Part shown: positions 7,313 to 64,000 of the stretch, piece by piece
Position numbering within the stretch: the stretch's first letter is position 1
Layout of the letters: every line of letters begins with the position of its first letter
From: Escherichia phage PBM-2
DNA: 64,000 nt
Reading direction: 5' to 3' (one strand)
Sequence record: PV029541
Translations under genes and position numbers: made by a program
The notes under the pieces: model-generated
What the model was told of the DNA's origin: nothing
Databases searched by the model: none
What the model saw: the letters and a program-made list of their open reading frames with translations, nothing else

Positions 7313-7329
7313 GCTTGGAGGTAACAACT

Positions 7330-8420: not shown

Positions 8421-8470
8421 GGGTATTCTTTGTTTGGGGTCATAAACCCTGAAATGAAACCCTCAAGTTT

Positions 8471-8501
8471 GACCTCCCTATTGAAGGGAGGTCTTTTTTT
8501 G
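8471..8501 (+). terminator. rho-independent terminator (approx. coords)
   Basis: 8-bp stem gacctccc/gggaggtc followed by seven T. Confidence 0.65.
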
Positions 8502-8525
8502 ACTTAAACATTCTGGAGCCAGGAA

Positions 8526-9223: not shown

Positions 9224-9257
9224 TTAGTAATTCCATTAACTTTAGGAGAGTAAGTAA

Positions 9258-10310: not shown

Positions 10311-10314
10311 AATA

Positions 10315-11490
10315 ATGAACCAATTTCCTCAGCACTCCCTTAGTGATGAACAACTCATGCGTGAATATGATCGTATTCAGGCTCAGACTTTCCTAGGCAA
10401 GTCTGCTGCGTTCTTTGGTTCATTACTATGTAGCCTTAAGTTCTCATGGAAACGTGAGGATTGTCCCACCGCATGTACTGATGGGATAGAACTACACTTC
10501 AACCCGGATTTCTTTATCTGGATGTGTCCAGACGCAAGAGAAACAGTGTTAATGCACGAACTCTGGCATGTAGCATATCTGCATGACATCCGTCGTGGAA
10601 GCCGTGACCCAGAAATCTGGAACCAGGCATGTGACCACTTCATTAACCTCCAGTTAGAAGAAGATGGTTACAAGTTCACTGGTATTGATGAAGGTATTTG
10701 CAAAGACCCTCAATATAAAGGATGGGTTGAAGAAGACATCTACGATGACCTGATGAAGAACCCTCAGAAAAGGCAGAAGCCGTCAGGGGGTGCTGGAGCA
10801 GGTCTTGCTGGCGACATGAAATCCCCCTCTTCGGGGCAGTCCCAGGGTGCTGTTGTCAACAACGTAGTACGTGCAATGCAGAGCCAGAAAATGGCTGGTG
10901 GAACAATGCCTGGTAAGGGTGCTGGTCGTATGGAAGAGGTTATTACCCAATTCCTCAAACCAGTGGTTCCATGGCAGGAAGTTCTGATGAACTTCTTTAC
11001 CGACATTGACGATACTCATTATACGTGGGCCAGACCTAACCGTCGTTACACTGACATCTATCTACCTTCCATGGAAGATGATGAAGGACGTCTACGACAC
11101 TTAGCCTACTTTGAGGATGTATCTGGTTCCATTAGTAGTGCTGACTCTCTGCGATTTAACTCAGAAGTTGCCTATGTCAAGAGCCAGTTCAATCCTAAGA
11201 AGATGTCCTTAATTACCTTCGACGATATTATCCAAGAAGAGATAGACATCACTGAAGAAGATACTTTTGAAGAGATTAAGATTACTGGTCGTGGTGGTAC
11301 AAGCCTTGTGCCAGTACGAGATTGGATTATTAAGAATAAGCCAACTGCTGCAATCATATTCTCCGATATGTATGTTCATCCAATGGAAGAATTACCATTT
11401 GATATTCCTATCATCTGGTGTGTTCTGAATAATCCCAATGCTACCGTACCTTTTGGGGAGGTAGTTCATATCCCTAAAGGAATGAAATAA
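10315..11490 (+). CDS. VWA-domain protein with N-terminal HExxH metallopeptidase-like motif (MoxR partner)
   Basis: VLMHELWHVAYLHD (HExxH); gene pairing with the MoxR-like ATPase; C-terminal half consistent in size with a VWA fold. Confidence 0.55.
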   Translation: MNQFPQHSLSDEQLMREYDRIQAQTFLGKSAAFFGSLLCSLKFSWKREDCPTACTDGIELHFNPDFFIWMCPDARETVLMHELWHVAYLHDIRRGSRDPEIWNQACDHFINLQLEEDGYKFTGIDEGICKDPQYKGWVEEDIYDDLMKNPQKRQKPSGGAGAGLAGDMKSPSSGQSQGAVVNNVVRAMQSQKMAGGTMPGKGAGRMEEVITQFLKPVVPWQEVLMNFFTDIDDTHYTWARPNRRYTDIYLPSMEDDEGRLRHLAYFEDVSGSISSADSLRFNSEVAYVKSQFNPKKMSLITFDDIIQEEIDITEEDTFEEIKITGRGGTSLVPVRDWIIKNKPTAAIIFSDMYVHPMEELPFDIPIIWCVLNNPNATVPFGEVVHIPKGMK

Positions 11491-11996
11491 TGGTTGTTAA
11501 TGGTAATTCTCTATACCGTTCATCTCAGTTGCTGGATGTCCCAGACCGTAAGATATCAGAGCATGGTGTAAGCTATGGATTAGGTGAAGCTGGTTATGAT
11601 ATTCGTATCAAACAAGACATTACCTTCTATCGCTTATTTGGGTTGATTCCAATGGTGAAAGTCGTTGATGGAAATCAAGTATCACGCCATCTCGGTAAGT
11701 TCACCTTGGCTTCAGCAATTGAGAAGTTCAACATGTCTCCATCCTGTGTAGCTATCGTTCACGATAAGTCTACGTGGGCAAGACGTGCATTATCAGTGTT
11801 CAATACCGTGATTGAGCCAGGTTGGAAAGGGTATCTTACCCTTGAACTGGTCTATCATGGTCGTAAGAAACTACATATCCCGGCTGGTGCTGGGATAGCT
11901 CAAGTATTATTTCATCTGGTTCAGGAACCTGCTAATTACAATGGCAAGTATCAGAACCAGGAAAACCAACCAGTAGCTGCTAGACCTTCAAAATAA
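11490..11996 (+). CDS. dcd: dCTP deaminase (dUTPase-fold)
   Basis: GYDIRIKQDITF and IEPGWKGYLTLELVYHG match dCTP deaminase signature regions. Confidence 0.6.
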   Translation: MVVNGNSLYRSSQLLDVPDRKISEHGVSYGLGEAGYDIRIKQDITFYRLFGLIPMVKVVDGNQVSRHLGKFTLASAIEKFNMSPSCVAIVHDKSTWARRALSVFNTVIEPGWKGYLTLELVYHGRKKLHIPAGAGIAQVLFHLVQEPANYNGKYQNQENQPVAARPSK

Positions 11997-12026
11997 AAGG
12001 CTATCCAGCTTAATTAAGGAAACAAC

Positions 12027-12227
12027 ATGTCAGTATTTCAAGTAACTCCTGTTGGCAGTACCGTGCGTAAAACTATTGTTGCAACTAACGTAGTAGATGT
12101 AGATGAGACATCAGTCGGTGCTGTAATTCATCTGATTGATGGGCGAACAGTATCTGTAAAAGAAAGTTACCGTTCTGTGCGTGGTTACGTTCGTAAAGCT
12201 TTAACTGCTGTCTCTGACGCAGAGTAA
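12027..12227 (+). CDS. hypothetical protein (66 aa)
   Basis: ORF track; RBS-like aaggaaacaac upstream. Confidence 0.3.
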   Translation: MSVFQVTPVGSTVRKTIVATNVVDVDETSVGAVIHLIDGRTVSVKESYRSVRGYVRKALTAVSDAE

Positions 12228-12300
12228 GTAGCTGCCTAAATAGCCCAGCATAGTTGGGCTATTTGTGAAGAAACTAACTCAACCCCACATAGGAACCATC

Positions 12301-12543
12301 ATGGAATCTTTAGCAGCAATCCTTGTTTTCTTATTCATACTAGCTGTATACCTCATCCCTACTATCATTGCTTTTGCACGAGGCCATGCCTCCAAGTGGG
12401 GTATTGGTGTACTCAATATTGTATTAGGCTGGTCACTGGTATTCTGGGTAGTAGCACTGATTTGGGCACTGTCCAACAAAGGGCAAAGCCAAGTTACAAA
12501 CGTAACTGTTGTTCAAACCAATGGCGGTAGTAAAGCAGAGTAA
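12301..12543 (+). CDS. superinfection immunity protein (T4 Imm-like), membrane
   Basis: Track ORF 12265..12543; YLIPTIIAFARGH...LNIVLGWSLVFWVVALIWAL matches my recollection of the Imm-type family; two TM helices; AGGA RBS before internal ATG at 12301. Confidence 0.55.
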   Translation: MESLAAILVFLFILAVYLIPTIIAFARGHASKWGIGVLNIVLGWSLVFWVVALIWALSNKGQSQVTNVTVVQTNGGSKAE

Positions 12544-12618
12544 CTAACCTAAGCATCATTACATAGTGGTGCTTGTGGAAGTTACTTCCAGCTCATTGCT
12601 TATCCATCTCCTAACCCA

Positions 12619-12647
12619 AGCCCACCTAACCAGTGGGCTTTTTTATT
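12619..12647 (+). terminator. rho-independent terminator (approx. coords)
   Basis: aagcccac/gtgggctt stem followed by ttttttattt. Confidence 0.6.
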
Positions 12648-12660
12648 TACAGGTACTCTT

Positions 12661-13047
12661 ATGTCAAACAGACGAAATGGTAAGTCTATCCTGCAAGGAC
12701 TGGACTTCGGTAAGCTGGAACAAACTGCAATGCTTGCTTTAGGTAAAGCTGTACATGATCAAGTAGATAATGAAATTGAATTAGATCTTTACACAGCAAT
12801 GCAGGCTATTGTTCAGAAAGGATGGACTACTAGCAGACCATTTTATGCCACTTCATACACTCCACCGGAACCCCATCTGAAATCTAAGGTAGACCGAATC
12901 ATAGACAAGTTCTGGCTTAGTCCGTGTTATGACGAAATGCATCTTTACTTGGCTCAAATACAAAAGAATCCCCGTACTAAGGATGTATTCAAAGGTAAAA
13001 GTACTACTCATCATTATCCCTGGTATAGAAGAGGTAGTAAATACTAA
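12661..13047 (+). CDS. hypothetical protein (128 aa)
   Basis: ORF track. Confidence 0.35.
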   Translation: MSNRRNGKSILQGLDFGKLEQTAMLALGKAVHDQVDNEIELDLYTAMQAIVQKGWTTSRPFYATSYTPPEPHLKSKVDRIIDKFWLSPCYDEMHLYLAQIQKNPRTKDVFKGKSTTHHYPWYRRGSKY

Positions 13048-13490
13048 TGCGTATCCCATTCCTACGGAAAAGGGAACGAAATCCTGTTCTTTACAATAAA
13101 GGCATAGAGGATGAGTATGAACTCAACCGTAAAGCTCGTTCCTACACAACAAAATTATTTATGGGGACTAACAATCCTGATAGATTACTGGACTTTGTTT
13201 TTGAACAAGTCTTTATCATATACAGCTTAGCTATGTCTGCTGGTTCACAAGAAGTAAGTGATAAGGCAAGAGATGCTCTCTGTATGCTCCGTAAAGAGTA
13301 TGAAGCCCTCATGTATGAAGACTTATACTCCTTTAAAAAAGAAACCGCTGTAGCGTGTTCTGTGGCCCTTACTGAAGGTATAGCAGTATTGCAAGAGCTA
13401 CCCCGTAGTGAGTTTAAGCTGGTATATGTTCAGGTTAAGAAAATTACAGAAAACCGTAGTGGTATCACCAACTATCTAAGGTCATTCTAA
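13047..13490 (+). CDS. hypothetical protein (147 aa)
   Basis: ORF track; start overlaps upstream stop. Confidence 0.35.
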   Translation: MRIPFLRKRERNPVLYNKGIEDEYELNRKARSYTTKLFMGTNNPDRLLDFVFEQVFIIYSLAMSAGSQEVSDKARDALCMLRKEYEALMYEDLYSFKKETAVACSVALTEGIAVLQELPRSEFKLVYVQVKKITENRSGITNYLRSF

Positions 13491-14434
13491 TGATTAAGGC
13501 AACTGTCATTGCAGATTCCGTTCACCCAGAAACAGGAACTCGTATTACTACCTTTGAATTGGTTTATCCCCGATTCATTCACAGTGAGTTTATGACCCAC
13601 CGTGTATTTAACCGTAATGCTTCAAGCAGTCGTGCTATTCCTACATCTAAGTTAATTGAACAGGTTCGTAATGAACCAGTGATGCCAAGTCACTGGGGCA
13701 AGAACCAGAAAGGTATGCAAGCAGATGAAGAACTCACTCCTGCTGAGATTGAAGATGCTAAGTTTATCTGGGATAACGCTGCATCTGCTGCTGCTGTGTA
13801 TGCTGAACAGCTACGACGTGGACAAGTACATAAGCAGATTGTTAACCGTATCCTGGAACCATTCACGCATATTCGTGTAGTGGTAACTTCAACTAGCTGG
13901 GCTAATTTCTATGGACTGCGTGACCACAAAGATGCACAACCAGAGATTCGTGAACTGGCTCAAGCAATGCGTAAGGCACATGAAGAAAGTACACCAAGAG
14001 CACTACCGTATGGGCAATGGCATCTGCCTTATATTGCTCATATTGACCGTGTTGGGGCTTATAATTTCTGCAAACGTAATCGAATTACACGCGATGAACC
14101 AAGTGATGCAGAAGTGCATGGGCTACTTCTCAAAGTAAGTGCTGCACGCTGTGCCCGTGCTTCTTATAACAACTTTGAAGGACGTCCTTCTACTATTGAG
14201 GAAGACCTTAGCTTATTTGCTAAGTTAGTGGAAAACCAACCTATTCATGCTTCCCCAACAGAGCATCAAGCTACACCTATGAATCTTGGTGAGAAGTACG
14301 TGAATAACATGAACCCAGTTACATGGGAACAAGGTGTTACATCCATGGATAAAGAAGGGAACCTGTACTCAGGTAACCTGCTTCACTTTATCCAATTCCG
14401 TAAGTTAATCCCAGGTGAGACAATTACTGAATGA
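13490..14434 (+). CDS. thyX: putative flavin-dependent thymidylate synthase (ThyX-like)
   Basis: FMTHRVFNRNASSSRAIP resembles the ThyX RHR-x7-S signature, with Thr in place of the first Arg; size of about 314 aa fits. Confidence 0.45.
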   Translation: MIKATVIADSVHPETGTRITTFELVYPRFIHSEFMTHRVFNRNASSSRAIPTSKLIEQVRNEPVMPSHWGKNQKGMQADEELTPAEIEDAKFIWDNAASAAAVYAEQLRRGQVHKQIVNRILEPFTHIRVVVTSTSWANFYGLRDHKDAQPEIRELAQAMRKAHEESTPRALPYGQWHLPYIAHIDRVGAYNFCKRNRITRDEPSDAEVHGLLLKVSAARCARASYNNFEGRPSTIEEDLSLFAKLVENQPIHASPTEHQATPMNLGEKYVNNMNPVTWEQGVTSMDKEGNLYSGNLLHFIQFRKLIPGETITE

Positions 14435-14667
14435 AAAAACTAGCTATCCAGGCAATGATTATAAATATCATCCTGGTTCTGGAATTTGTATTTTCATTAC
14501 ACAATGTTCAGAGCCTAGAAGAGATGTTCTTCGTAGTGGCCCGTTTCTCTGCATGTATTATTGGCCTATGGTGTGCATATTACTATGCACGAGATTATGT
14601 AGCCATTAAAGAGCAGGATGAAGCAAAGGAGCGTGTGATACGCTTCTTTGGAGGAAATCGTAAGTAA
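14431..14667 (+). CDS. small membrane protein (78 aa)
   Basis: ORF track; two hydrophobic segments; followed by terminator. Confidence 0.35.
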   Translation: MKKLAIQAMIINIILVLEFVFSLHNVQSLEEMFFVVARFSACIIGLWCAYYYARDYVAIKEQDEAKERVIRFFGGNRK

Positions 14668-14672
14668 ACCTA

Positions 14673-14699
14673 AGACCTCCTCCGGGAGGTCTTTTTTTG
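14673..14699 (+). terminator. rho-independent terminator (approx. coords)
   Basis: agacctcc/ggaggtct stem, TCCG loop, seven T. Confidence 0.65.
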
Positions 14700-14727
14700 G
14701 TTTCAATTAACTCTTTTAGGAGGGCAT

Positions 14728-14940
14728 ATGCCTGCTAAATACCGTATCAAAGATACACCCGTAATGTGTGAGGGTGAGAAAGGTGACATTGTATATGCCT
14801 GTATCCAGGATGATTTCAATGCTGCTCTGATGCTAACTCAGATGACAAATACACTGCATGTATCAGTGACACTGGACCCTACCGGTGACTATCCATGCTT
14901 CCCTATTCCTGCCCATAACCTGGAGCAAATCCATGATTAA
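14728..14940 (+). CDS. hypothetical protein (70 aa)
   Basis: ORF track; AGGAGG RBS upstream. Confidence 0.35.
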   Translation: MPAKYRIKDTPVMCEGEKGDIVYACIQDDFNAALMLTQMTNTLHVSVTLDPTGDYPCFPIPAHNLEQIHD

Positions 14941-15247
14941 CCCTGAAGTAATTCATAGCAAAACTGGTAAAACTGTTCCTCTTAGTGAAATTGCGGTAAC
15001 TGGTGATATTGCTGCTTGCCCAGCTAACATCGCTTCTATATGTATGTGCATTGCTGCACTGGCAGAGGAACGTAAGTTATGGTTGGAACCAAGCAAGGAA
15101 ATGGTACTGGCTGGCATGTCTGAACTGAATGCACTTCTGAAAGAAATGTATGACGAGGATGGGCAACTAGTTGAACCAACTGATGACCAAATATCAGATG
15201 CTGTCGTATTCATCCTTCAAGCAATGGCAGGTAAACGCAATGGCTAA
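14933..15247 (+). CDS. hypothetical protein (104 aa; internal ATG start)
   Basis: Track ORF 14885..15247; ATG at 14933 overlaps upstream stop (ATGATTAA) with GGAG RBS. Confidence 0.35.
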   Translation: MINPEVIHSKTGKTVPLSEIAVTGDIAACPANIASICMCIAALAEERKLWLEPSKEMVLAGMSELNALLKEMYDEDGQLVEPTDDQISDAVVFILQAMAGKRNG

Positions 15248-15431
15248 TGTAAATATCGCCTCAGAGAAAACGTATAGCATTCAGATAAATGGATTAACCG
15301 AGTATCAGGTCTTATTCCTAATGAATGCTTTTCAAAATAGTCCCGTGGGTCACCATCCTAATGATGAACCACAGGAAGAAGCTGAACTTCGTAAAGCTAT
15401 TTTTGATAAGTGCAAACAAGTCCTACTATAA
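15240..15431 (+). CDS. hypothetical protein (63 aa; internal ATG start)
   Basis: Track ORF 15171..15431; ATG at 15240 overlaps upstream stop (ATGGCTAA). Confidence 0.3.
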   Translation: MANVNIASEKTYSIQINGLTEYQVLFLMNAFQNSPVGHHPNDEPQEEAELRKAIFDKCKQVLL

Positions 15432-15458
15432 GCAACATTTAAACTGGAGAGTAAATAA

Positions 15459-18026
15459 ATGTTAGTTGCAGATACCAATGAAGTAGCTACCTCAGCGACA
15501 CTGGGTGGCAAAGAAACGATTGCCTTTGGCATCTCTGATGACCCGACATTCTTTCACGTATTAAGTACTTCCCTGTACAACAACCCCACTCTGGCAGTAG
15601 TCCGTGAGACTATCTGTAACAGTTGGGATGCTCATATTGAAGCAGGTAAGACTGATACCCCTATTCGTATCACTATTGATACAGACAACTTTATTACCTT
15701 CCGTGACTTTGGTAATGGCATCCCCGATGAACTCATTGGTTCCATTTATGGTGTCTATGGTGCATCTACTAAGAAAGCCAACAGTAGTGTTACTGGTGGT
15801 TTTGGTCTGGGATGTAAATCCCCGTTCGCTTATACAGATAGCTTCCAGGTTACTTCATGGAACCAGGGAAAGATGTCGGTATATAACGTAGCTAAAGCTG
15901 CGATTGAGAATGACGGTAAACCAGGCATTGTTCCTATTGTTACTAATATTCCTACTGAGGAATCTGGGCTGGAAGTTAAATTCCAGTTAGGCAAGCATGA
16001 TTTAAATACCTTTGTACATTACATCACATCAATAGTATTTAACGGTGAGATTAAAGCTGAACTTAGTATCCCTAAACTCGTTAAAACAGAAGAAGGTAAT
16101 AGTATTCAGCAAGGTGACTACACTCTACTGAATACACTAGGAATGTCATTTGAACCTGGTTCATACGATATGTCTGATAGATGGTATCAAGGCTATATGG
16201 GTAACAGTAACATATTCGTTCGTTACGGTAACGTAATGTACCCAATTGTATCCAGCCCAGCTAGTGAAGAGGCTGTAGGTCTTATCCTCAACTTTATGAA
16301 TATCATTGGTGCTTCTAATCTGGTGGTTCAGGCTGCACCTGATACTCTAGCTATTTCTCCTAGTCGAGAAACACTGTCTAACCAGAAGTTAACTGACGAT
16401 GGTATTACTACTCTGTGTGTAGATTTAGTAGACCGTATGGAGAAAGAGATTAGGGCTAAAATTCCTGAAGCTATTAAGCAGATTGAAGAATATGCCGCTA
16501 AAGCATCTACCCGCTTCTGGACCTATCCATCTTTCTTGATTGCTGTCACAGACCCTATTGTTCAACGCTATATGTCCTCTAGTTTGTGGGCTAAGCAACG
16601 TAAACATCACATCAAGCACTGGCGTAACTTATCTAATAAGGCATTATTAGCCCGGCCAGAATATGCTGGTCTTAAGAAGTTGTATGGTAAGGCTATGCGT
16701 GCTCTTAAAGATACTCGTGAAGAAGGTGCATACTCTCCATTTCAGGAATTAGTATATCGCCATCTGCACTTACCACAACTCGCTGCTTTAAAAACCTCTG
16801 GTATTAAGTGGTCTGGTTACATAATGAACCAGGGTAACCATGTTGACCTGGTGAAAGGTAAACTTACTGACTACTTTAGGATATTCTATAACTCCCATCA
16901 GAGTATTGGCATATTCACTACTAAAAATGTTGTAATTACCCGACGTTTATCTGATTGTGCAGACTCTTTCTCATATTTCCCAGAGTACAATCGTGGTGAC
17001 CTGGAACGTACAGCTTTTGTTCACGTCGTTAGTCCTAAAAAGGGTGCAGCAGAAGAAGCTGTAGCTAAGTTCACTGCTATGGGTTATCGGGTAATTGACC
17101 TCACTCAATATAATGAGTGGGACAAACCAACTAACTACCGCAGAGAACAAGCTAAGATAGCTGCTGAGAAACGAGCTAAGACGATAGCTGCCAATAAAAC
17201 CAAAGCAGGGGGTAAAACTAATGCTCTGATTTCGTTGAATGCAGTTCTCGGTACTACTTCTGTACGAAATAAAAGTGGGGATTGGGATTCTAAGCCGTAC
17301 ATTGACAAGGATTTTACTGACCCAAGCTTCCATGAGAAGTACGGTTTCGTTGAAGTGGAACAGCCTAAGTACTACGTACTAGCCAATCAGGTTAGTTCTG
17401 GTAGTCCTGTAACTGCTCGGATTGGAACCATGTGGAAATGGTATGAGTTATCTGACGAGATGAAAGCAGAGACTGTTGTCTGTCGCAATCAAATTGAAGC
17501 TAACAAAGCTAAACGACGTGGTGCTATTCACATTGATGACGTTCGTTTTATGGAGCTGATGCCAGTTATTACCAGCAAAGGCTTCAAGAAATATGTTACT
17601 GAACACCGTATTGGTATTCTGGAATATGTAGGATTAGATGACAGGGAATACTGGGAAATCCTCGATATTCTTGGTCTAACATTCAAACCATTACAGAATC
17701 TGATTTTTAAACCAGAGTATGAATGGGCATATGACTTTCTACGGAATCGACCACATAACAACAAAGAAAAACTTGTTGAAATGGGTTGTATTAAGTCAGT
17801 TGATGACTTAGAGCCATATACAATGATGGTTAATCCGCGTAATCATAAGTACTTTGAAATACTTAATCAGTACAAGGGGTTATTCAGCTATAGCTTGAGT
17901 GCTGGTGACATACTACAGAGTCTGGACTTGGGGAGTTTAGTTAAACACCTCAAGAAAAATCCAGAGGATATTCCTGGGTTTAAGTCCCTCTACCGTAATC
18001 GTCTAAATAAACTGAAAGGTAACTAA
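15459..18026 (+). CDS. rIIA: rIIA-like protein (GHKL ATPase-like N-terminus)
   Basis: LSTSLYNNPTLAVVRETICNSWDAH and GGFGLGCKSPFAYTDSFQVTSW closely parallel T4 rIIA N-terminal motifs as recalled; 855 aa. Confidence 0.8.
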   Translation: MLVADTNEVATSATLGGKETIAFGISDDPTFFHVLSTSLYNNPTLAVVRETICNSWDAHIEAGKTDTPIRITIDTDNFITFRDFGNGIPDELIGSIYGVYGASTKKANSSVTGGFGLGCKSPFAYTDSFQVTSWNQGKMSVYNVAKAAIENDGKPGIVPIVTNIPTEESGLEVKFQLGKHDLNTFVHYITSIVFNGEIKAELSIPKLVKTEEGNSIQQGDYTLLNTLGMSFEPGSYDMSDRWYQGYMGNSNIFVRYGNVMYPIVSSPASEEAVGLILNFMNIIGASNLVVQAAPDTLAISPSRETLSNQKLTDDGITTLCVDLVDRMEKEIRAKIPEAIKQIEEYAAKASTRFWTYPSFLIAVTDPIVQRYMSSSLWAKQRKHHIKHWRNLSNKALLARPEYAGLKKLYGKAMRALKDTREEGAYSPFQELVYRHLHLPQLAALKTSGIKWSGYIMNQGNHVDLVKGKLTDYFRIFYNSHQSIGIFTTKNVVITRRLSDCADSFSYFPEYNRGDLERTAFVHVVSPKKGAAEEAVAKFTAMGYRVIDLTQYNEWDKPTNYRREQAKIAAEKRAKTIAANKTKAGGKTNALISLNAVLGTTSVRNKSGDWDSKPYIDKDFTDPSFHEKYGFVEVEQPKYYVLANQVSSGSPVTARIGTMWKWYELSDEMKAETVVCRNQIEANKAKRRGAIHIDDVRFMELMPVITSKGFKKYVTEHRIGILEYVGLDDREYWEILDILGLTFKPLQNLIFKPEYEWAYDFLRNRPHNNKEKLVEMGCIKSVDDLEPYTMMVNPRNHKYFEILNQYKGLFSYSLSAGDILQSLDLGSLVKHLKKNPEDIPGFKSLYRNRLNKLKGN

Positions 18027-18030
18027 TCTG

Positions 18031-20091
18031 ATGAAAATCGAACTGATTTCTATCATCGCACTGGCAGTTGACAGTCGAAACTTAACATTGTGGAAGCCTG
18101 ATGGCTCCACAATTGTATATCCACAGAGCGACCCACGGGTTGCTCGTATCGTATCTGAAGCACAAACCAAAGGCTTGGGAATTACCAAAGACCTGATAGA
18201 AGTAAACATTGCACCAGAAGTATCACTGCGTAATGAGTATCTGGAAGCAGAGAAGAACACTAATGGATTCGTCCGTTTCTTCAAGGTAGCTAAAGCTAAA
18301 CTCAAAGAGTTCTTCCAGGATGGTACAGATGTTCAACCTACCCAAGCCGTTTCTGATATTAAGCTAGGCAATCCCACCAAGACATTAGTATCTAAAGCTA
18401 TGGATACATTCCTGGCTGTACAAGCTAATGAACCAGAAGTAACAGTATCAGATGGTTGCTACGACAGACGTGACAATCTGATGTGGATTACTGGCTGGGA
18501 TAAGGACTATAACTATCCTGCACTGGTTCGTTTTATTAACGACGTAATGGGTTGGGGGTATGAACAAACCAACACCATGCTCAGACAGGAATGGCCTGTT
18601 GCAGTTCGTGCAGTATCCGATGATGAAATGGGTGAGTTTGCTAAACAAGCCAAGCACATCAAAGGTGTACATATTGTATTTACCAGCCGTAAACATACCC
18701 CACCACCTTACATTGAAGTAGCTAAAACTACGAACCAGGATAAGCTGGCTGCTGCATCCGAGAAATTAGCTGCATTAGGTGCTATTAGTACTGATAACGC
18801 TAACTTTCACACTGATGTGAAGGAAGATGAAGTGGTTGTTGCTGTTACCAACGATGGGGTTATCCCTGGAGTTGAGAACCTGCAACGTCACTTACGTCAG
18901 TCTGCCAAGTTGAAAGACTACAAGGGCTTCACTAAGTTCCTTGAGCGTCTGGCTCCGGTTATTAAAGACCGTCTGCACTCAGTAGAAGACCTGATGAAGT
19001 TCATGGAAACTGCTGAATTGCCTATCGCTGATGATGGTTCAATCCTGTTCCTTAAACGCCTTCAGTATAAAGGGAAAGAAGATGGTAAACGTGTATTCGT
19101 TGACTGTCACTCAGGTAACATCAAACAGTGGGTAGGCTGTAAAGTGCAGGTACGGGAAGACCTGGTAGATCCTGACCGTCGTCAGGACTGTTCTAACGGT
19201 CTGCATGTAGCATCCATGAGCTATATTCGTAGCTTCGGTGGTAACGTAACTATCCTTGGTAAAGTAGCACCAGAAGATGTATTTGCTGTTCCTCAGTACA
19301 GCACTAATAAGATGCGTGTATCTGCGTATCACATTATTGCTGAACTGCCGGAAGAGGAACGTAATAACGTTAACAGTGGTATCTATTTGTCTAAAACTGA
19401 AGTAGGTAAGAAACTACTTAATGATGCCATCGTTGGGAACCATAGTTCACCTACCACACTTATTATGGTTGGTGGACATCGTGGTACTAACCTCAAATAC
19501 ACCAATCTCACATCTGGTTCTGTAGAACAATTCCGTACAGTTGCTAGCAAAGAAGCACTGGACATGGAAGAGTCACTGAATGAAGCTGTAGCTGCTGAAC
19601 CAGTGAAGGCTACTGACCTTAAACCCGTTATTAAGAAGGCTCCTACTGTGAAAGAACAAATCCAGGAACTGGTTAAAGAGTTCCTTAATGCAACAACACC
19701 AGAAGATAAGTTAGCTGCTGCTGACCTTCTGGTAGAACTGCGTTCCAAAGCTCGTAAGCCTTGGGCTGCATTTGATGTAGGTAGTGACGTGGTAGCTAAG
19801 ATTGCTGATGTACGTGCTACCTATACAATTAAGCCTATTGGTAAACCTAAAGCTGTTAAGCAGGATAAGACAGTTAAACCTACACGTTCTGCTGCTGCTT
19901 CTAAAGTAGCTCCTTCTGGTAAACACGTTGATAATCTGCGTAGCATCCTGAACGATACGTCATATTCTGACTATCAGAAAGGCCATGCTCTGCAAGACTA
20001 TAAACGTCATGCTAAGAAGTCATTCACTGCAATGGGTCTGACTGAAGAAGAAGCTAAATTAGCTACCAAGCTGGTTAAAGCAGTTAAGTAA
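18031..20091 (+). CDS. rIIB: putative rIIB-like protein
   Basis: 686-aa ORF immediately downstream of rIIA; assignment by synteny only. Confidence 0.4.
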   Translation: MKIELISIIALAVDSRNLTLWKPDGSTIVYPQSDPRVARIVSEAQTKGLGITKDLIEVNIAPEVSLRNEYLEAEKNTNGFVRFFKVAKAKLKEFFQDGTDVQPTQAVSDIKLGNPTKTLVSKAMDTFLAVQANEPEVTVSDGCYDRRDNLMWITGWDKDYNYPALVRFINDVMGWGYEQTNTMLRQEWPVAVRAVSDDEMGEFAKQAKHIKGVHIVFTSRKHTPPPYIEVAKTTNQDKLAAASEKLAALGAISTDNANFHTDVKEDEVVVAVTNDGVIPGVENLQRHLRQSAKLKDYKGFTKFLERLAPVIKDRLHSVEDLMKFMETAELPIADDGSILFLKRLQYKGKEDGKRVFVDCHSGNIKQWVGCKVQVREDLVDPDRRQDCSNGLHVASMSYIRSFGGNVTILGKVAPEDVFAVPQYSTNKMRVSAYHIIAELPEEERNNVNSGIYLSKTEVGKKLLNDAIVGNHSSPTTLIMVGGHRGTNLKYTNLTSGSVEQFRTVASKEALDMEESLNEAVAAEPVKATDLKPVIKKAPTVKEQIQELVKEFLNATTPEDKLAAADLLVELRSKARKPWAAFDVGSDVVAKIADVRATYTIKPIGKPKAVKQDKTVKPTRSAAASKVAPSGKHVDNLRSILNDTSYSDYQKGHALQDYKRHAKKSFTAMGLTEEEAKLATKLVKAVK

Positions 20092-55953: not shown

Positions 55954-58224
55954 TTACAAGTTCATGCCAAGAGCCGATGCTGGGTCTTGGCTAGGGTCAT
56001 AGAATTGGGAACTAAGTGAATAAGCTGGGTCTTGTTGTGCAGCTAAGTCACGTTCTGGTATAGAGTTCCCATTAGTCAAAGCGTTATATCCAACAGCAGC
56101 AGATATGTTGGGGGTAGTTTCACCTTCTTTAGTAGGTGTTGTCAACGCCTTAGTTATCTGAAGATTCTGGTTTCCTTGAGATTGTGCTTTTTGTTTTTCC
56201 ATGTCACGAGCATGTTTAGTACCAGATTCCTGTTCCAGATAATCCAGATCTTTAAGGTCACCACTAGAAGCAGCCTCTTTAGCCTTAGCCATATTGAGTG
56301 CAATCTTACTTTGCAGCTCTTCGTTCTCAAGCTGTGCTTTCTGAATTGCCAATTGCTTAAGCTGTTCTTCCATAGGGTCTGGTTGTGGTTGCCATGTACG
56401 TAACTCATGAGCAAGGTCTGGCATACGTTTAAGTTCTGCAATCTTAGCTACAAGAGATAACGTAATAGTCTGGTCAACCGTATTACCTAACGTTTGAACC
56501 ATGAAGCTCAAGTCCTGGGATTTCTGGTTATCAATCTCAGCAGTATTAATATCAACTTCAATGTCGAAATTACCTTTAAGGTCTTCACGGTTAATCTCTA
56601 CGTACTGCTCGTTAGTAATACGTACTACTTCTTTCTCAGATAAGAACACAGCATTCATTGCACAAATCTTAGTACCAATGTCTGCCATACCCTTAGCTAA
56701 TCGACGAAGGATTGCCATCTCACGTTTGGATGCTGCATCTAGTACACCACGAATACCAGCAGCTACATCTCCGTAAGCTTCACCAGTTACACCACCCGAG
56801 AATGCTTTAACACCCGTTAGTGCTTCTGCTTCCTGGTTTTGCATCTGAGTCATTACTATTGCCGACTGGGGTAACTCAGGGAACTTGTGTTCCATAATGG
56901 CCTGACTAGGATTGCCCTGCATTGGGTTATATTCGTAGTCTTGTCCATCATCGTATCGACGACGGTTCAAGGTATCTAACATCCCTTTAGGATAACCACG
57001 TTGACCATTTGCACTTCGGCCCAACAGGTCAATCATCCCACGCATGGTTGCACCAAGAATTGCTTGGTTATCTCCTAGCAATTCAGCATCAGCTTCACCA
57101 TAGAGTTCACGTTTACGAGGCATATAAGGAACAACTACCAATGGTAACTTACCATCTGGGAATGGGTTCTTCTCCATACGAATAAGAGTAGAACCAATCC
57201 AGGTAGCAACAATTGGTTCCAGTGAACCATCATCATTGATGTCGTAGAATCCCCAGTACTCATAAGCAACTACCTTCTTACGAAGTGCATCCTTAAACTG
57301 GAAATCGCTAGGGGTTTTACTTTCATGGTCTGGGTCAGTAATGGGGCTGGAACTCTCCCAGTCAATTTTATCTAGGTTGTGATAACGGTCTTTGTTTTTC
57401 ATAAGGTCTGCTTTGCAAGTCTCAAAGGAAATGACTGCATACAGAGCCTTATCCAAATCACCATTGCAGCTCGGGTCAATAACTACGTTATTAGGATTAA
57501 GCATTTCAACGGTAGGTCTGTTAACCAGTGCTTTTTCTACTTCTACTTCAGTGACCCCTGTCTGAATTGCATAAGTAGCTTCTCCAGTTTCATTGAAGTA
57601 GTTAACAGCTTCTTTGATATCTTCTGGCATTGTTTCGTCATACTCACGGGGATTCTCTGCCTGAAGCTGCAAAGCCTGTTGGAGAACATCTGCTTGTTCC
57701 TGGTTCTCAATTGGATACAACTGGAAGACTGGAGTTTCTGTTTTAATCTTAATAGTCTTACGTTCCCAACCGATACGAGCAATACCAGTACCGTCATCTA
57801 CGACACTATGCACGTAATCATCTACCAGTTTTACTTTATTAAGCTGAGTACGGAATTGGTAGTTAAGAACTAGCTCATTCTGGCGTGCAGCTAACTCATC
57901 TTCAAAAGTAACCGGAGTTACCTTAAATAGTTTGTTAGACGAGAGGAATGGTTCAGACAATGGAGCATAACGCCACTCTGCCTGACGGCGAACCAGTCTA
58001 GGCTGGACTTGCGAGCGTCCCTTAACCTTTGGGGGTTTAGCCTTACCCTTTACTTCCATTAAATCATTCCACTCACGAATCTGTGCCATGATTGCATCGT
58101 GAGCAGGTTTAGCAGATTCCAAATCACCCTTCAGTAATTGGATACTTGGTTCCTTCTTCCAGTCCGTTAACTTCTCTGATTGAGCCGGGTCTGGTAAAGG
58201 CTTAAAAGTGTCTTGGTGTTCCAT
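55954..58224 (-). CDS. putative portal protein
   Basis: 756 aa; AGGAA RBS; position upstream (in transcription order) of scaffold and capsid; synteny and size only. Confidence 0.5.
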
Positions 58225-58226
58225 AG

Positions 58227-58733
58227 TTATTCCTGTTCAAAAAGTTTACGGTCAGCCTGAATCTGTTTACCCAACTCAATTAGTTGGCTGTCACGGAGTC
58301 TAACAGTTGCCCGGAGTTCTTCAACCAAACGTCTGCCTTCTTCAAGACTATTGTCGAGTCTGGCTGCATGGCTTGCAAGACTTCTGCACTCAAGGGTTCC
58401 GGCTTCGGCTTGACGTTTATATACCGATGCTCGTCTTTCAGACTGTTGCATCCGGCTGTCGTAATCACTGCTAACGCGAGCAAGCTCGCTTGCGTAATTA
58501 CTCTCAGCCGTCTGCAACCGGGAAGTGAGTAACCCGACTTCATAACTATGGTTTCTTTGGAGAGCATTGTATTTGTCCTGTAATTTTTGCGTTGCCTTTT
58601 GGTCTTCGACCTTTTGGGCATCCCATTTCTTTTGAACAGTAGACTGCCCATTGGAATTGCCCCAAAAGTAAATGGTGGCCCCAAGGACCACCACCAGAAG
58701 ATAAGGCCAACCTTTAGAGATTAGCATCTTCAT
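58227..58733 (-). CDS. Rz-like i-spanin
   Basis: N-terminal TM helix [16 protein letters not shown] followed by coiled-coil-like periplasmic region; contains embedded Rz1 in the +1 frame; track start 58754, ATG at 58733 preferred. Confidence 0.55.
58280..58543 (-). CDS. Rz1-like o-spanin lipoprotein, fully embedded in Rz
   Basis: [32 protein letters not shown]: signal peptide with lipobox TTAGC; Pro-rich mature part; entirely inside the Rz ORF. Confidence 0.55.
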   Translation of the reverse strand: MKSGYSLPGCRRLRVITQASLLALAVITTAGCNSLKDEHRYINVKPKPEPLSAEVLQAMQPDSTIVLKKADVWLKNSGQLLDSVTAN

Positions 58734-59349
58734 TACATGCCTCCAGTGGCACATTGCCTATTCGGTTAGCTACCCAACCATACGTAAAGTCTGGCATGTT
58801 TAATGAGGTATAGTGGTTCAGTTGTTTAGCATCAAGCAGCTTAATCATTACCTGACATGCTGCAACTTTGCCCCGTTTTTTCTGTAATGCTTTATATGCA
58901 TTAACAGTACTTGTACCGACTTTACCATCAACCTGTATTTTAGGGTAGTCTTTGCCATTACGTGACATTTCATTAAGAGACATCTGCAACCACTTAGCAG
59001 GACGGGTTACACCAGTATTAACACCAGCATCTACTAGCTTATGCGTTACAGCAGGAGATATATCAGCGAAGGCTACGAAGTTAGGTTTAAGTACATAGTC
59101 ATCAATGTATATCTCAGCAGCCATCTCTTTAGATAAACCCTTCATAGAACCATCCCAACCATACTCAGTAGCCAGAACTTCTTTATGAGTCTTAGCTACT
59201 GATTGGGTAATACCATGATTAGTTTCCCCACCTGGGTCACGAGGATTGTTTACGTAACCCCCTTCCATATAGAACACTGCCCCCAGAATAGCAGCGACAA
59301 CCCCTCCCACTGCACCACCTTTCGCAGCAAGTTTCTGTTTAGCTTTCAT
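58714..59349 (-). CDS. endolysin, GH108-type muramidase with N-terminal SAR-like signal-anchor
   Basis: EGGYVNNPRDPGGETNHGIT matches the GH108 catalytic motif; N-terminus MKAKQKLAAKGGAVGGVVAAILGAVF is a Gly/Ala-rich weakly hydrophobic helix typical of SAR domains; C-terminal DGKVGTSTVNAYKAL resembles a peptidoglycan-binding motif. Confidence 0.7.
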   Translation of the reverse strand: MKAKQKLAAKGGAVGGVVAAILGAVFYMEGGYVNNPRDPGGETNHGITQSVAKTHKEVLATEYGWDGSMKGLSKEMAAEIYIDDYVLKPNFVAFADISPAVTHKLVDAGVNTGVTRPAKWLQMSLNEMSRNGKDYPKIQVDGKVGTSTVNAYKALQKKRGKVAACQVMIKLLDAKQLNHYTSLNMPDFTYGWVANRIGNVPLEACNEDANL

Positions 59350-59913: not shown

Positions 59914-60092
59914 AAGATTACCGTAGTTATGTAGTTAGGAACCCCAATAGGGTCATATCATAAGATGACCATTAGATAATACTTAATATAATTAAAGGCA
60001 TCCAGGTATAGAATGTAGTCCTACCAAATCCTCAAAACCCACAAGGAGGTAATGAGCCTCCGATGGACTTCGATGACGATATTCCGTTTTGA

Positions 60093-60122
60093 TGATAAAA
60101 CTAACCCCGCCGAAGCGGGGTT
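60093..60122 (-). terminator. intrinsic terminator downstream of tail-fibre gene (approx. coords)
   Basis: 8-bp stem aaccccgc/gcggggtt, CGAA loop; minus-strand RNA continues GUUUUAUC. Confidence 0.45.
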
Positions 60123-60350
60123 TAGTGATTATTGTTAGGAAATATAAGCCGTAATAACCCAAACTACAGTATATGCTAACACTGGTACTAACTAATCCAA
60201 TAGACTAGGTAAGTCCCATGCTCGCCAGTCGAATCCACCCCACCAAGGTATATTGGCGCGCCTCCTGCACCCCACATACCTAACACAATGCCAATTCCGC
60301 TTTGGATAATGACAGCGGCCCCCGCATGTAATAATGGGGAAAATCATGCA

Positions 60351-63029
60351 TTACTTAGCCTCCAGTTTTTTTAATCGCTCTTCAATACGATCACAGCGGC
60401 GTCGCTGATAAGCGGCCTCCAACCAGAAACACTGATCGGGACGAATGCCCCAGCGATTACCGGCAGCTCTAGTAAGTAGGGTATTACCGGTTTCCACTTG
60501 ACGGGTAACTTCGGTATCGACACCATCAATATTAACAGTAACAATCTCATCAACGAACTCAGGTTCATATTCATCTTCCCACTCGTCGTAACAAAGCAGG
60601 CCAAAGGCAGTACCATCCAATCCATGCTTGATGAACGTGTCACGAACCTGTTGGGCAATTACCCCAAAATGCCAACGAGCAGAGTCCTCCCCTTTAGATG
60701 CGATAGAAGCTAACCACTTATAAGTGATCACCTGTACATCGCCCCAGGCATCAAGGATATCATCCGATATTTCAGAAGGATCAGTTTTTTCACGGGAATC
60801 AGACGTATTAATAGTACCAATTGCCGCGAATACTTGAGCCACACGTAATGATGGATTACCTAAATTGTAAGCATTATCTGTGTATGGACGTAGAGATGTA
60901 TCATCTAAACGCCATCGAATAGTGCCACCTAGGGTTGCGGGCGACGGATTAGTAGCAAAACTAATAGTCGTAGCACTCTTAAATAATGAAGAGCCGCCAC
61001 CTAAAATAAGAGAATGTGCAGATGCGGAACTTTGTTGATCGAGGACAAGAATCTGTTCTGCTTCGGTTAAAGTTGTGTTACCGAAAGCTCTGGCAGCGAT
61101 ACGCCCCTGAGTTAAAGACCCAGAGTCAGTATTGTTTAAAGTTAAACGGTAAGTCTCCAAACCAGTAGCCGCAGTAACTACTGTGTAACCGGAGGTGTCA
61201 TAAGTAACACGAACAGTTTTACGGGTAGTTGGCCCGGTCTGATCTATAGAGAAGCTCTGGTTATTCAGGTTGCTAATATGAAGCTCTATCCCGATTGGGT
61301 AGGCAACTCCAGCCAGGTCTGTAAGACCGGTGCTTGATGTATAGATAGTAACTGCCTTCTGCCCGGACAACCGCATAAAGTCCAATACTGCTGACAATGA
61401 AGTCATGGCAATACCGGTCAGAGGGTTATAGAGTACGTCGCCTGCGAGTATTCGTGGATAAACCCCAGAAGCCATCCGAATGGTATCGTAACCTGGGGAT
61501 ACCGTTGTCACCGCAGAAAAATCCAAGTCCGGGAAATTGGAATACTCTTTGGTAATTAGGATTCCATGCGTATACGCATTCGAGGTGGTTCGGTCGTTAT
61601 AGATCCATAAGGTGAACACTTCACCATTTGAATAGCAGATGCCCTCATTCTCTATACGAGAAGTCGTTAAGCCTTTAGCATCCAGGACACTAATAAAACC
61701 AGTAGGAGGAATTACTGCCTCTACCATTTTGTGCCCATCGGTGCTGAACGCTTTTACCCCCTGATAATTAGTAGGCGCTTCTACAGTTGTTCCTGTAATG
61801 TACACACCACCGAATGCCATAATCAAAACACCAGGAGCTAAACAGATTGCTTGTCGCTTAGTTTGAAGTGACCCATAATCAGTAGTAGTTGCCGTGATGT
61901 ATCCAGCGTCATACGGAGAAAATTCCGTGAAGCCAGTTAATGCAAATGCGGAGTTGAAGTACGCAATAGCATTACGTTGGCGGTTAATGCCCAACGCTGG
62001 GATGGCCTGTTCAACTGCCCACATTCCATTGTGGAAGGAGAACTGGTTATACAGACCTACCTGATGCAAGGCTGTATAGCTAATCGTGGTGCCGTAGGTC
62101 ACCGCTGAGATATCAAACTCAGCTAAGTTACCATCGTAAGACCCCAGGAATAACTTAAGTGAACCATAGTAATTGGTTACGATAATCCCTTCGGATACCG
62201 CAGAACCATTTACCCCAGTGCCTCCATTATTAGTCTGGAGATACCCTAAGTATTCACCTTCCCCTGAGTAAACTACAACGAAACGTTCCGTCGCTGCGTT
62301 ATTACTTGGGCCGTATGCAATATAGATTTTGCCATCATCCCCGATACAGAATGACCCTGGATAAATAAACGTCCAGTCAGGGTGTGCCGCCAGAATCGCA
62401 TCGTAATCTGGGAATAGTAATGGCAGGTCAAAACGAATTTCTTTTTTATCTGCGCCCGAATTAGCCCAACGACTACCCAGGACTGTAGACAGTGTTTCCC
62501 CGTTTTTTGCGCCAATTAAATTTGTTCCGGTTGGTTTTGCAATATCGGCGCGCAATGACGCATCACCAACACTAACCCACGCTCCTAATTTAACCTCACC
62601 CGTGCTGTCTGGAGTTGAACCAGCGGGCACTACTTTAGGCAGCTCGCCATCCCAGCGATACTTACCATCGGTAAAGACAACTAATTCATTCTTAGTATTA
62701 ACTGTTACACCGGTATCAAATGAACCAGGCAAGGTCACATACTCTTCACGAGTAACAGCCAATGCACCTAAGTCCACATTACCAGCAGAGTGGACCAATA
62801 CCCCAGCAGTACTAAGACTTACAGCAGTAACCTCAGAACCAAGGTTAGCTGGTAAGGAATATGCTCGCTGAGTTACCTTGTCATAAATAACTTTGTAGCC
62901 ATCGAGTAATGCACCAACTGAGAAGTAAACAACCTCATTCTGCTTAACACCAAACTTACGGGCAATGGCTTGTTTGTTGGTAAGAATACCAGTGGAGCCT
63001 TTACCACCTTGTGAGAACATTTCGTTCAT
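60351..63029 (-). CDS. tail fibre or tailspike with C-terminal intramolecular chaperone (peptidase S74-type) domain
   Basis: 892 aa; C-terminal DAWGDVQVITYKWLASIASKGEDSARWHFGVIAQQVRDTF...RWGIRPDQCFWLEAAYQRRRCDRIEERLKKLE matches the self-cleaving chaperone domain of endosialidase-type fibres. Confidence 0.7.
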   Translation of the reverse strand: MNEMFSQGGKGSTGILTNKQAIARKFGVKQNEVVYFSVGALLDGYKVIYDKVTQRAYSLPANLGSEVTAVSLSTAGVLVHSAGNVDLGALAVTREEYVTLPGSFDTGVTVNTKNELVVFTDGKYRWDGELPKVVPAGSTPDSTGEVKLGAWVSVGDASLRADIAKPTGTNLIGAKNGETLSTVLGSRWANSGADKKEIRFDLPLLFPDYDAILAAHPDWTFIYPGSFCIGDDGKIYIAYGPSNNAATERFVVVYSGEGEYLGYLQTNNGGTGVNGSAVSEGIIVTNYYGSLKLFLGSYDGNLAEFDISAVTYGTTISYTALHQVGLYNQFSFHNGMWAVEQAIPALGINRQRNAIAYFNSAFALTGFTEFSPYDAGYITATTTDYGSLQTKRQAICLAPGVLIMAFGGVYITGTTVEAPTNYQGVKAFSTDGHKMVEAVIPPTGFISVLDAKGLTTSRIENEGICYSNGEVFTLWIYNDRTTSNAYTHGILITKEYSNFPDLDFSAVTTVSPGYDTIRMASGVYPRILAGDVLYNPLTGIAMTSLSAVLDFMRLSGQKAVTIYTSSTGLTDLAGVAYPIGIELHISNLNNQSFSIDQTGPTTRKTVRVTYDTSGYTVVTAATGLETYRLTLNNTDSGSLTQGRIAARAFGNTTLTEAEQILVLDQQSSASAHSLILGGGSSLFKSATTISFATNPSPATLGGTIRWRLDDTSLRPYTDNAYNLGNPSLRVAQVFAAIGTINTSDSREKTDPSEISDDILDAWGDVQVITYKWLASIASKGEDSARWHFGVIAQQVRDTFIKHGLDGTAFGLLCYDEWEDEYEPEFVDEIVTVNIDGVDTEVTRQVETGNTLLTRAAGNRWGIRPDQCFWLEAAYQRRRCDRIEERLKKLEAK

Positions 63030-63213
63030 AAGAACCTCTTTGTTTTTCTGGTTAATGGCGTCCTTGCCGAATATATCCTTATGTACACATTGGAAGATTA
63101 TTTAAATTTTTCCAATTGCCGACGAAGAAATGCACACTTAAGTACGGGAGATTTCTCATAACTAATACCGTATCCACCCCTCCACCAACTTAATGGCAAA
63201 ATGGTTTTGTTTA

Positions 63214-64000
63214 TTACTTCTGTTCAAGAGCAGAAAGTCTGGCTTCGATTCTTTCCAGTTTTCTTCTCTGATAAGCGGCTTCAGCAAAGAAAATTCCGTC
63301 AGGCCGAACACCCCACTCCTCACCCTCTTCATGAATAACCACCTCGGTGTATACAGGTTCTTCCGTAGTAGTGACATTACCCTCCTCGTCAGTATGTTCA
63401 ACGATTTCATTGTGTGAAAATACCGTATCGGTCATCCGTGGATACTTGTCATAGCACAGAACAGCATAACGACAATTCGTACTGTTTTCATCCATCAGAC
63501 CATGTGCAATGAATACATCACGAATTTGTTGAGCAATAACCCCGAAGTGAATACGAGCATCATTACCTTTCAGTTGAACAGCATCTAACCACTGGTACAT
63601 GATGTAGTGAACGTCACCCCAGGCATCCAGGAAAGCATCATCAAAAACTACCGGCTCTGTTTTCTTCTCCCCGTTAGAAGTAACAATAGGGTTACTTCCG
63701 AGGTATGCAGTGGTGAAACGGTTTCTTGGTCCACCAAGCGCAATGACGTTATCGTTATAAGGCTTAACATCAGCACCCTGAAACAGATGTTCATTTCCGT
63801 TGTAAACTATCCTGCGAGAAGCTGTGTTGCTCGCACCGTAAAGCGTAATCTGTGCACCAGTAGAAGAACTGGTTCCGTCTCCCCCGCAAAATATGATGCG
63901 CTGCCCTGCTGGGTTATTAGTCGGTACAGATTTCCCGATAAACCCATACTCACCTTCCATTAAAACTTCAGAGCGAATGTTACTACTGGTGCTGGCTCTA
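63214..64000 (-). CDS. second tail fibre with C-terminal chaperone (S74-type) domain, 5' end beyond window
   Basis: C-terminal DAWGDVHYIMYQWLDAVQLKGNDARIHFGVIAQQIRDVF...EWGVRPDGIFFAEAAYQRRKLERIEARLSALE; reading frame stays open upstream of the first ATG (63960) to the window edge. Confidence 0.6.
   Translation of the reverse strand, partial: RASTSSNIRSEVLMEGEYGFIGKSVPTNNPAGQRIIFCGGDGTSSSTGAQITLYGASNTASRRIVYNGNEHLFQGADVKPYNDNVIALGGPRNRFTTAYLGSNPIVTSNGEKKTEPVVFDDAFLDAWGDVHYIMYQWLDAVQLKGNDARIHFGVIAQQIRDVFIAHGLMDENSTNCRYAVLCYDKYPRMTDTVFSHNEIVEHTDEEGNVTTTEEPVYTEVVIHEEGEEWGVRPDGIFFAEAAYQRRKLERIEARLSALEQK

Follow-up and report, generated by a model that had tools for sequence, protein, structure and literature searches.

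A probable two-spike host-recognition module of the G7C type in an Escherichia phage, with an S74 chaperone domain at the end of each tailspike

We analysed a 64,000-nucleotide stretch of DNA from Escherichia phage PBM-2 (record PV029541; the whole stretch is called the window below), and in particular two consecutive minus-strand tailspike genes at its end, gene 1 and gene 2, the latter continuing past the last base. Together these genes very probably encode a two-spike host-recognition module of a G7C-type, N4-like podovirus. The trimeric gene 2 product would be the tail-anchored primary spike, in which the N-terminal ~387 residues provide the anchor and the branching domains, and the distal part, an endosialidase of the K1F type, would cut the K1 capsule of polysialic acid. 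The product of gene 1 would be a secondary spike, docked through its gp63.1-type N-terminus on the branching domain of the gene 2 product; its propeller head, carried on a trimeric stalk, would recognise another surface polysaccharide and probably cleave or modify it. Both proteins end in a domain of the S74 type, which in each case would nucleate trimerisation of the stalk and then remove itself by means of a Ser/Lys dyad. The arrangement is real but ordinary, and each of its elements has a close precedent.

Over window bases 60000-64000 the sequence shows 100.0% identity to Escherichia phage PBM-3 (GenBank PV053165.1), a 72.9-kb Gamaleyavirus (Schitoviridae, G7C/N4-like group) with a public, annotated genome. 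PBM-3 was published as a genome announcement and isolated on the avian pathogenic E. coli (APEC) strain PE144, O1:H7, sequence type 95 (ST95) (PMC12697173). A 3457-amino acid (aa) open reading frame (ORF) in the window has the size of the giant virion RNA polymerase (vRNAP) of N4-type phages, and the gene order of PBM-3 (adaptor - gene 2 - gene 1 - gp63-like - holin - endolysin - spanin - portal) matches that of G7C (gp67-gp66-gp63.1-gp63...). An earlier reading of the window from its letters alone (the sequence-only reading) had stated that the second gene runs off the window edge, and the frame of gene 2 is indeed open from 63214 to base 63999. Followed past position 64000 in the PBM-3 record (L001:11215-14862), it forms a complete 1215-aa ORF with zero internal stops. 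We therefore reject the idea that gene 2 is a truncated pseudogene, as the ORF is intact and its product is 99.8% identical to a protein that has been detected in virions of related phages.

Gene 2 combines the scaffold of one known spike with the enzyme of another. Its residues 1-387 are 69% identical to residues 1-388 of G7C gp66, and its residues 386-1215 are 86% identical to residues 235-1064 of the endosialidase of phage K1F (gp17, endoNF). The Pfam domains End_N_terminal, End_beta_propel, End_beta_barrel, End_tail_spike and Peptidase_S74 were all found (PF12217 with E 4.5e-205, together with PF12195, PF12218 and PF12219), the endoNF crystal structures 3gvl/1v0e were matched with E = 0, and the N-terminus matched 9d80_D and 9d83_D, structures solved by cryo-EM for gp49 of Shigella phage B2 and gp82 of Moo19. 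Residues E581, R596 and R647 of endoNF, reportedly its active-site residues (Stummeyer et al. 2005), are conserved in gene 2 as E732, R747 and R798. Domain set, PDB matches and conserved residues thus all place gene 2 among the endosialidases, although K1F gp17 carries a T7-type N-terminal adaptor where gene 2 has the gp66-type anchor/branching region.

At their C-termini both proteins match Peptidase_S74 (PF13884, described in Pfam as 'Chaperone of endosialidase') above its gathering score of 22 bits: gene 1 at aa 743-804 (54.7 bits, E 1.2e-14), and gene 2 both as the window fragment (39.1 bits, E 9.3e-10) and as the full protein (36.6 bits). Residues 713-892 of gene 1 and 1032-1215 of gene 2 are 41% identical over ~190 residues (BLASTP, E 4e-39), a region that holds DAWGDV, HFGVIAQQ[VI]RD, WG[IV]RPD, EAAYQRR and RIE.RL, and a tblastn search of the 64-kb window with the gene 1 C-terminus returned exactly two copies, those of gene 1 and gene 2. 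On this sequence comparison the likeness of the two S74 modules is far beyond chance. Outside the last ~190 residues BLASTP found no significant similarity between the two proteins, a weak N-terminal patch of 86 aa (E 0.002) being all that was returned.

The sequence-only reading had assigned both ORFs to the self-cleaving type of S74 chaperone. As an intramolecular S74 chaperone domain the assignment is borne out by the Pfam scores and by the invariant Ser/Lys pair, self-cleavage being the predicted property, and all the motifs it had quoted lie in the shared region. The dyad of K1F endoNF, S911/K916, is invariant in a four-way alignment of K1F, gene 2, gene 1 and the K5 lyase of Gamaleyavirus UE-S5a. 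By residue mapping and codon check it corresponds to S1062/K1067 in gene 2 and to S743/K748 in gene 1, and the latter two residues are also invariant among six gene 1 homologues. In the K1F record (AM084414.1) the C-terminal 154 residues are given as a separate mature peptide, gp17-CTD, cut between T910 and S911; this site aligns with T1061/S1062 of gene 2 and T742/S743 of gene 1, and the aligned ...NPIVT is the end of the mature endoNF crystal chains. The C-terminal domain (CTD) of gene 2 is 99% identical to gp17-CTD, from which we infer autoproteolytic release in gene 2; by the same alignment the S74 domain of gene 1 would likewise be cleaved off. A trimeric stalk ahead of the S74 domain of gene 2 would be in keeping with the End_tail_spike domain and the matching endoNF structures. 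Stalk-plus-chaperone structures also match gene 1 (9vvr_A to aa 643-887, 3gw6_A to 708-892 and T5 pb1, 4uw8, to 691-849). Among the PDB matches, S74 domains have precedents on endosialidases, K5 lyases, T5 pb1 and the GA-1 appendage.

Ahead of these domains the two proteins do differ, as had been noted from the letters, and this was seen by BLASTP and in the domain and fold results alike. The domain prediction proposed at that time was carried out and gave a docking module and a predicted propeller for gene 1, and an anchor and an endosialidase for gene 2. The N-terminal parts had, however, been called receptor-binding as a whole, which does not hold for the extreme N-termini, as these are modules for attachment to the virion or to a partner protein. 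In gene 1, aa 1-187 match CBA120 TSP1 (4oj5, E 6e-79), G7C gp63.1 (4qnl, E 2e-67) and phage B2 gp48 (9d84_A, E 1e-65); Pfam Tail_spike_N lies at aa 91-156, and aa 1-163 are 71% identical to G7C gp63.1.

The central ~450 residues of gene 1 had no match in Pfam (E up to 10), in NCBIfam or in a profile search of PDB sequences. An AlphaFold2 (AF2) model, built as a monomer on a selected alignment, gave secondary structure with a predicted local distance difference test (pLDDT) score >90 up to model residue ~430; pLDDT was low in the stalk, as expected for an obligate trimer. The best fold matches of the head were the receptor-binding protein (RBP) of phage phi11 and five-bladed propellers, not endoNF, with many five-bladed propeller glycosidases of glycoside hydrolase (GH) families 43, 32 and 68 ranking next. 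We are confident in predicting a five-bladed beta-propeller, the number of blades being taken from the ranked fold matches and not from inspected coordinates. The platform of phi11 Gp45 (PDB 5efv) is only 13% identical to the head and went undetected by sequence profile search; it is part of the baseplate of a siphophage of Gram-positive bacteria, Staphylococcus phage phi11, and its protein, unlike gene 1, lacks S74.

An exhaustive HMMER search with the head returned 228 cluster representatives (clusters at 50% identity) at E <= 0.001. Q393, G407, G424, E460, E462 and G489 are invariant in this family, with the motif R-I-E-N-E-G at 458-463, and E280, K391, R458 and D503 are nearly so (63-81 sequences, about 23-38% identity). 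S74 is present in 20 of the 63 members scanned, and the N-terminal anchors vary (T7 tail-fibre N-terminus, Tail_spike_N, BppU_N). The head therefore represents an unnamed receptor-binding module that is widespread among phages. A PHROGs match over the propeller (phrog_22693, 'glycerophosphoryl diester phosphodiesterase') was not used, its name probably coming from another domain. A word-indexed search for homologues gave only 8 matches, and the entries from LS2 and ECG4 were dropped as frameshifted. These Kayfunavirus spikes (P0006 and P0008, from Escherichia viruses LS2 and ECG4; also MN518893.2 and MN218775.2) align to gene 1 only in patches and look frameshifted, one of them being labelled 'peptidoglycan lytic exotransglycosylase'; sequencing or assembly errors are likely.

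The case for a joint assembly comes from the relatives of the pair. G7C belongs to the same genus and has the same gene order and the same N-terminal modules, so that all the sequence marks of a G7C-type complex are found here, namely synteny, a gp66-type N-terminus with branching (XD) domains and a gp63.1-type docking module. In G7C, gp66 and gp63.1 assemble into a stable two-branched complex, for which gp63.1 needs the XD3 domain of gp66 in order to bind (PMC8825819). The distal parts are different: gp63.1 has an SGNH esterase and no S74 match, aligning with gene 1 only over residues 1-163/164, whereas PBM-3 has an endosialidase on the gp66 scaffold and a propeller with S74 on the gp63.1 scaffold. 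Shigella phage B2 (gp48/gp49) and Moo19 (gp82) provide N-terminal modules homologous to both PBM-3 proteins (PDB 9d80-9d84), but there the distal domains are esterases and the anchor gp49 is without an enzymatic part of its own; the structure of B2 gp48 together with gp49 was determined after co-purification of the two, direct evidence that modules of these two kinds bind one another (PMC11654681). A further parallel is the group of sister Gamaleyaviruses UE-S5a, S5b, M3 and M6 and, by analogy, K1-5. The endosialidase of the four sister phages is 99.8% identical to gene 2, and the K5 lyase in their gene 1 slot carries the same N-terminal Tail_spike_N and also ends in S74. Both proteins have been detected in their virions by liquid chromatography–tandem mass spectrometry (LC-MS/MS) (PMC11927229). 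In place of the propeller cassette and the ssb remnant of PBM-3 (see below), the sister phages have the K5 lyase and an additional plus-strand gene, 'G-9'. The display of two distinct fibres or spikes, as had been suggested, is thus supported by homology to the G7C pair and by sister-phage virion proteomics. They are tailspikes, though, not fibres, and by analogy with G7C the gene 1 product most likely hangs on the gene 2 product, in which case the two would probably not be independent.

For the head of gene 1 several functions come into question. GenBank labels gene 1 'endo-N-acetylneuraminidase', as it does the corresponding spikes of phages ZCEC08, ST1UNAM, U8 and ZCEC02, and the ZCEC08 spike obtained a depolymerase score of 87% from PhageDPO (PMC12001532). 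Were gene 1 truly an endosialidase, the phage would carry two K1-specific enzymes, but this is very improbable. The likeness of gene 1 to endosialidases is limited to the S74 domain and the adjoining stalk; it matches none of the End_* domains PF12217, PF12195, PF12218 and PF12219, whereas gene 2 has all four, as do genuine spikes of K1 siphophages (PMC11641727). Its fold ranking, too, is headed by the phi11 RBP with five-bladed propellers, not by endoNF. Taking domains, sequence and fold together, we reject gene 1 as an endosialidase, and the label, in GenBank and in the ZCEC08 paper, evidently arose because of the Pfam description of the S74 domain. Among the records PV053165, PP213477, OQ469755, MT862763 and PV833354, several give the propeller spike this unsupported label. 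Two further candidates for homologues of gene 1 proved irrelevant: Dpo52 carries an annotation for the polysaccharide-degrading superfamily of pectin-lyase type (SSF51126) and is similar to P12528, the tail spike of a Salmonella phage, and ORF40 of JSSK01 is a genuine endosialidase. It is harder to choose between an enzyme and a non-enzymatic, lectin-like head by which the spike would only adhere. The latter is possible, if somewhat doubtful. The platform domain of the phi11 RBP is a wall-teichoic-acid binder that is not known to be catalytic, and yet the invariant glutamates of R-I-E-N-E-G and the near-invariant E280, K391 and D503 would suit an active site or a metal site. Three observations suggest an enzyme: these invariant acidic residues, the propeller-glycosidase folds next in the ranking, and the haloed plaques made by siphophage ZCEC08 (PMC12001532), which has a spike with 96% identity to gene 1 over aa 91-892. 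Roughly, the balance between enzyme and pure binder tilts to the enzyme, by no great amount.

A related question is how the two spikes would be used. The suggestion of dual receptor or capsule specificity was worded broadly enough to cover both modes that we consider, dual capsule specificity being only one option and sequential action equally compatible. It may be that the spikes serve alternative host ranges, gene 2 for K1 strains and gene 1 for strains with another capsule or O-antigen, so that one spike matters per host; this is plausible without being probable. Phage K1-5 reportedly pairs a K1 and a K5 enzyme in this way (Scholl et al. 2001), and the sister Gamaleyaviruses pair a K5 lyase in the gene 1 slot with the same endosialidase. 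The gene 1 module also circulates without an endosialidase, in siphophage ZCEC08, several Kayfunavirus phages and a myovirus-like contig, and must therefore be sufficient as the only polysaccharide-directed spike there. On the other side, the host range of PBM-3 is known from the isolation host alone, and gp63.1 of G7C reportedly acts on the O-antigen of the very host that G7C infects (Prokhorov et al. 2017), which favours cooperation on one host. The spikes might instead act in sequence on one host, the endosialidase cutting through the K1 capsule and the gene 1 spike then binding or processing the O-antigen or another glycan of ST95-type strains, a course that we hold to be open in much the same degree. 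ST95 strains of the O1:H7 lineage typically have a K1 capsule and smooth O-antigen. The G7C-type scaffold is used in this manner in G7C, where gp63.1 modifies the O-antigen; the complex is described in PMC8825819, and the action of esterase spikes of this type on lipopolysaccharide in PMC11654681. The isolation host PE144 is O1:H7, ST95 (PMC12697173). However, an identical gene 1 module occurs in phages from unrelated uropathogenic E. coli strains and from hosts labelled Salmonella, given without serotype information. Several points weigh against the two-spike module in the full form outlined at the start. Docking, cleavage and dual display rest on homology and on the virions of sister phages, not on experiments with PBM-3; the K type of PE144 is unreported, K1 being the expectation for its lineage; among solved folds the platform domain of the phi11 RBP comes nearest to the gene 1 head, which may accordingly be a lectin; no catalytic family model matched the head in the Pfam, NCBIfam and PDB profile searches; and the halos of ZCEC08 are an indirect sign of an enzyme, not experimentally assigned to the spike.

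The history of gene 1 can be read from its flanks. From within the docking module to beyond its stop the gene belongs to a cassette with 99.0% DNA identity to the 47-kb siphophages ZCEC08, ST1UNAM and HC6, and ~92% identity to several Kayfunavirus phages. Homology to the UE-S5a backbone ends at 60011 and restarts at 62629, which therefore places one crossover inside the conserved coding region of Tail_spike_N and the other a few bases beyond the donor segment. Between gene 1 and the left junction lie a terminator hairpin and a short remnant that matches the C-terminus of the SSB protein of ZCEC08 (ending ...SPQGGNEPPMDFDDDIPF, stop), in whose genome ssb converges on the spike gene. Judged by this match, the ssb fossil is the mark of the left end of the transferred cassette. 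As the cassette holds the donor terminator and ssb tail, and ssb is convergent in ZCEC08, the transfer ran from a siphophage-type genome to a Gamaleyavirus. The head-stalk-chaperone unit of gene 1 thus arrived by recombination from a siphophage-like donor, replacing the K5-lyase cassette of the sister phages. The core of the hairpin is a 16-bp palindrome, CCCCGCCGAAGCGGGG (window 60105-60120), which is also found on both sides of G7C gp63.1 (L006 9219-9234 and 11845-11860, annotated as repeat_region) and downstream of the spike gene in ZCEC08, an unrelated siphophage (L003 6083-6098). It may be a shared micro-homology for cassette exchange, or merely a common terminator.

Two observations concern neighbours of these cassettes. 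The plus-strand gene 'G-9' of UE-S5a (L002 4183-4809), between the K5 lyase and the gp63-like gene, is entirely absent from PBM-3 (window 60011-60023), having been lost with the K5-lyase cassette; its product, which is present in virions, has been discussed as a protein that binds receptors (PMC11927229). A myovirus-like contig of 102.7 kb (L007, Logan SRR29378635) carries at 5833-18334 a propeller-plus-S74 spike with a head 95% identical to that of gene 1, adjoining other spike genes (NCTSP TIM-barrel, WcaM-like and Tail_spike_N/collagen-like), a cluster that looks like a multivalent adsorption apparatus in the style of phi92/rV5.

Table 1. Features of the two tailspike genes and of the gene 1 cassette, in window coordinates; residue numbers refer to the respective protein.
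Feature	Position	Strand	Description
Gene 1	60351..63029	-	892-aa tailspike, PBM3_11; GenBank label 'endo-N-acetylneuraminidase'
Gene 1 docking module	62469..63029	-	aa 1-187; gp63.1 / CBA120 TSP1 type
Gene 1 head	61530..62447	-	aa ~195-500; predicted five-bladed beta-propeller
Gene 1 small alpha/beta domain	61170..61487	-	aa ~515-620, after the propeller; from the AF2 model; boundaries approximate
Gene 1 stalk	60804..61142	-	aa ~630-742; presumed trimeric stem before the cleavage site; boundaries approximate
Gene 1 chaperone domain	60354..60803	-	aa 743-892; predicted cut T742/S743; dyad S743/K748
Gene 2, 3' end	63214..64000	-	aa 955-1215 and stop (last 261 codons) of the 1215-aa tailspike PBM3_10
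Gene 2 chaperone domain	63217..63678	-	aa 1062-1215; predicted cut T1061/S1062; S1062 codon 63678-63676
Gene 2 parts			gp66-type anchor/branching N-terminus aa 1-387; K1F-type endosialidase aa ~396-1061; S74 aa 1062-1215
Spacer gene 2 / gene 1	63030..63213	-	184 bp; identical in UE-S5a
Acquired cassette	60023..62660	.	gene 1 from aa ~124 to stop, with 328 bp of 3' flank
Terminator hairpin	60103..60122	-	3' of gene 1; AACCCCGCTTCGGCGGGGTT, then T-rich tail; only standout in the scan
ssb fossil	60023..60092	+	3' end of donor ssb, ...PQGGNEPPMDFDDDIPF (stop) / ...NPQGGNEPPMDFDDDIPF (stop); non-functional; in-frame stop just upstream at 60009-60011

The terminator scan found no hairpin terminator in the 184-bp spacer between gene 2 and gene 1, and promoter-like sites turned up no more often in the scan than in shuffled sequence. 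Reading by eye gave no credible gene among the short ORFs that lie between the end of gene 1 and its terminator. Elsewhere in the locus, the window holds a single 756-aa portal ORF (55954-58224), which the PBM-3 record splits into PBM3_16 and PBM3_17. Two small or medium-sized genes of this podovirus (among PBM3_11, PBM3_12 and PBM3_19) are named 'tail length tape-measure protein T' and 'tape measure protein', names that look unreliable. A 134-aa ORF (58280-58684, minus strand) is nested in another frame within a 175-aa spanin-like ORF (58227-58754, minus strand), resembling the embedded Rz/Rz1 pair annotated in G7C (gp60/gp60').

In summary, our result is confirmatory as far as branched two-spike modules, S74 domains on several spikes of one phage and the exchange of receptor-binding cassettes are concerned, all of which are established. 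The new element is modest. It consists of a second spike of the propeller type, misannotated and uncharacterised, with a recombination history readable from its flanks, where the junctions with the ssb fossil and the shared 16-bp hairpin show cleanly how a spike cassette passed from a genome of the siphophage type into an N4-like one. The 'endo-N-acetylneuraminidase' label on gene 1, and on near-identical copies in phages that are candidates for therapy, is unsuitable for inferring K1 specificity. It is also conceivable, although we consider it unlikely, that the head family links Gram-negative tailspikes to the Gram-positive RBP platform of phi11 Gp45 and, if R-I-E-N-E-G is an active site, that it forms a new class of capsule- or O-antigen-processing enzymes, mislabelled in many phages and mobile between podo-, sipho- and myoviruses as a head-stalk-S74 cassette. 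The propeller head family would be a reasonable biochemical target if capsule- or O-antigen-specific enzymes for extraintestinal pathogenic E. coli (ExPEC) and APEC are wanted.

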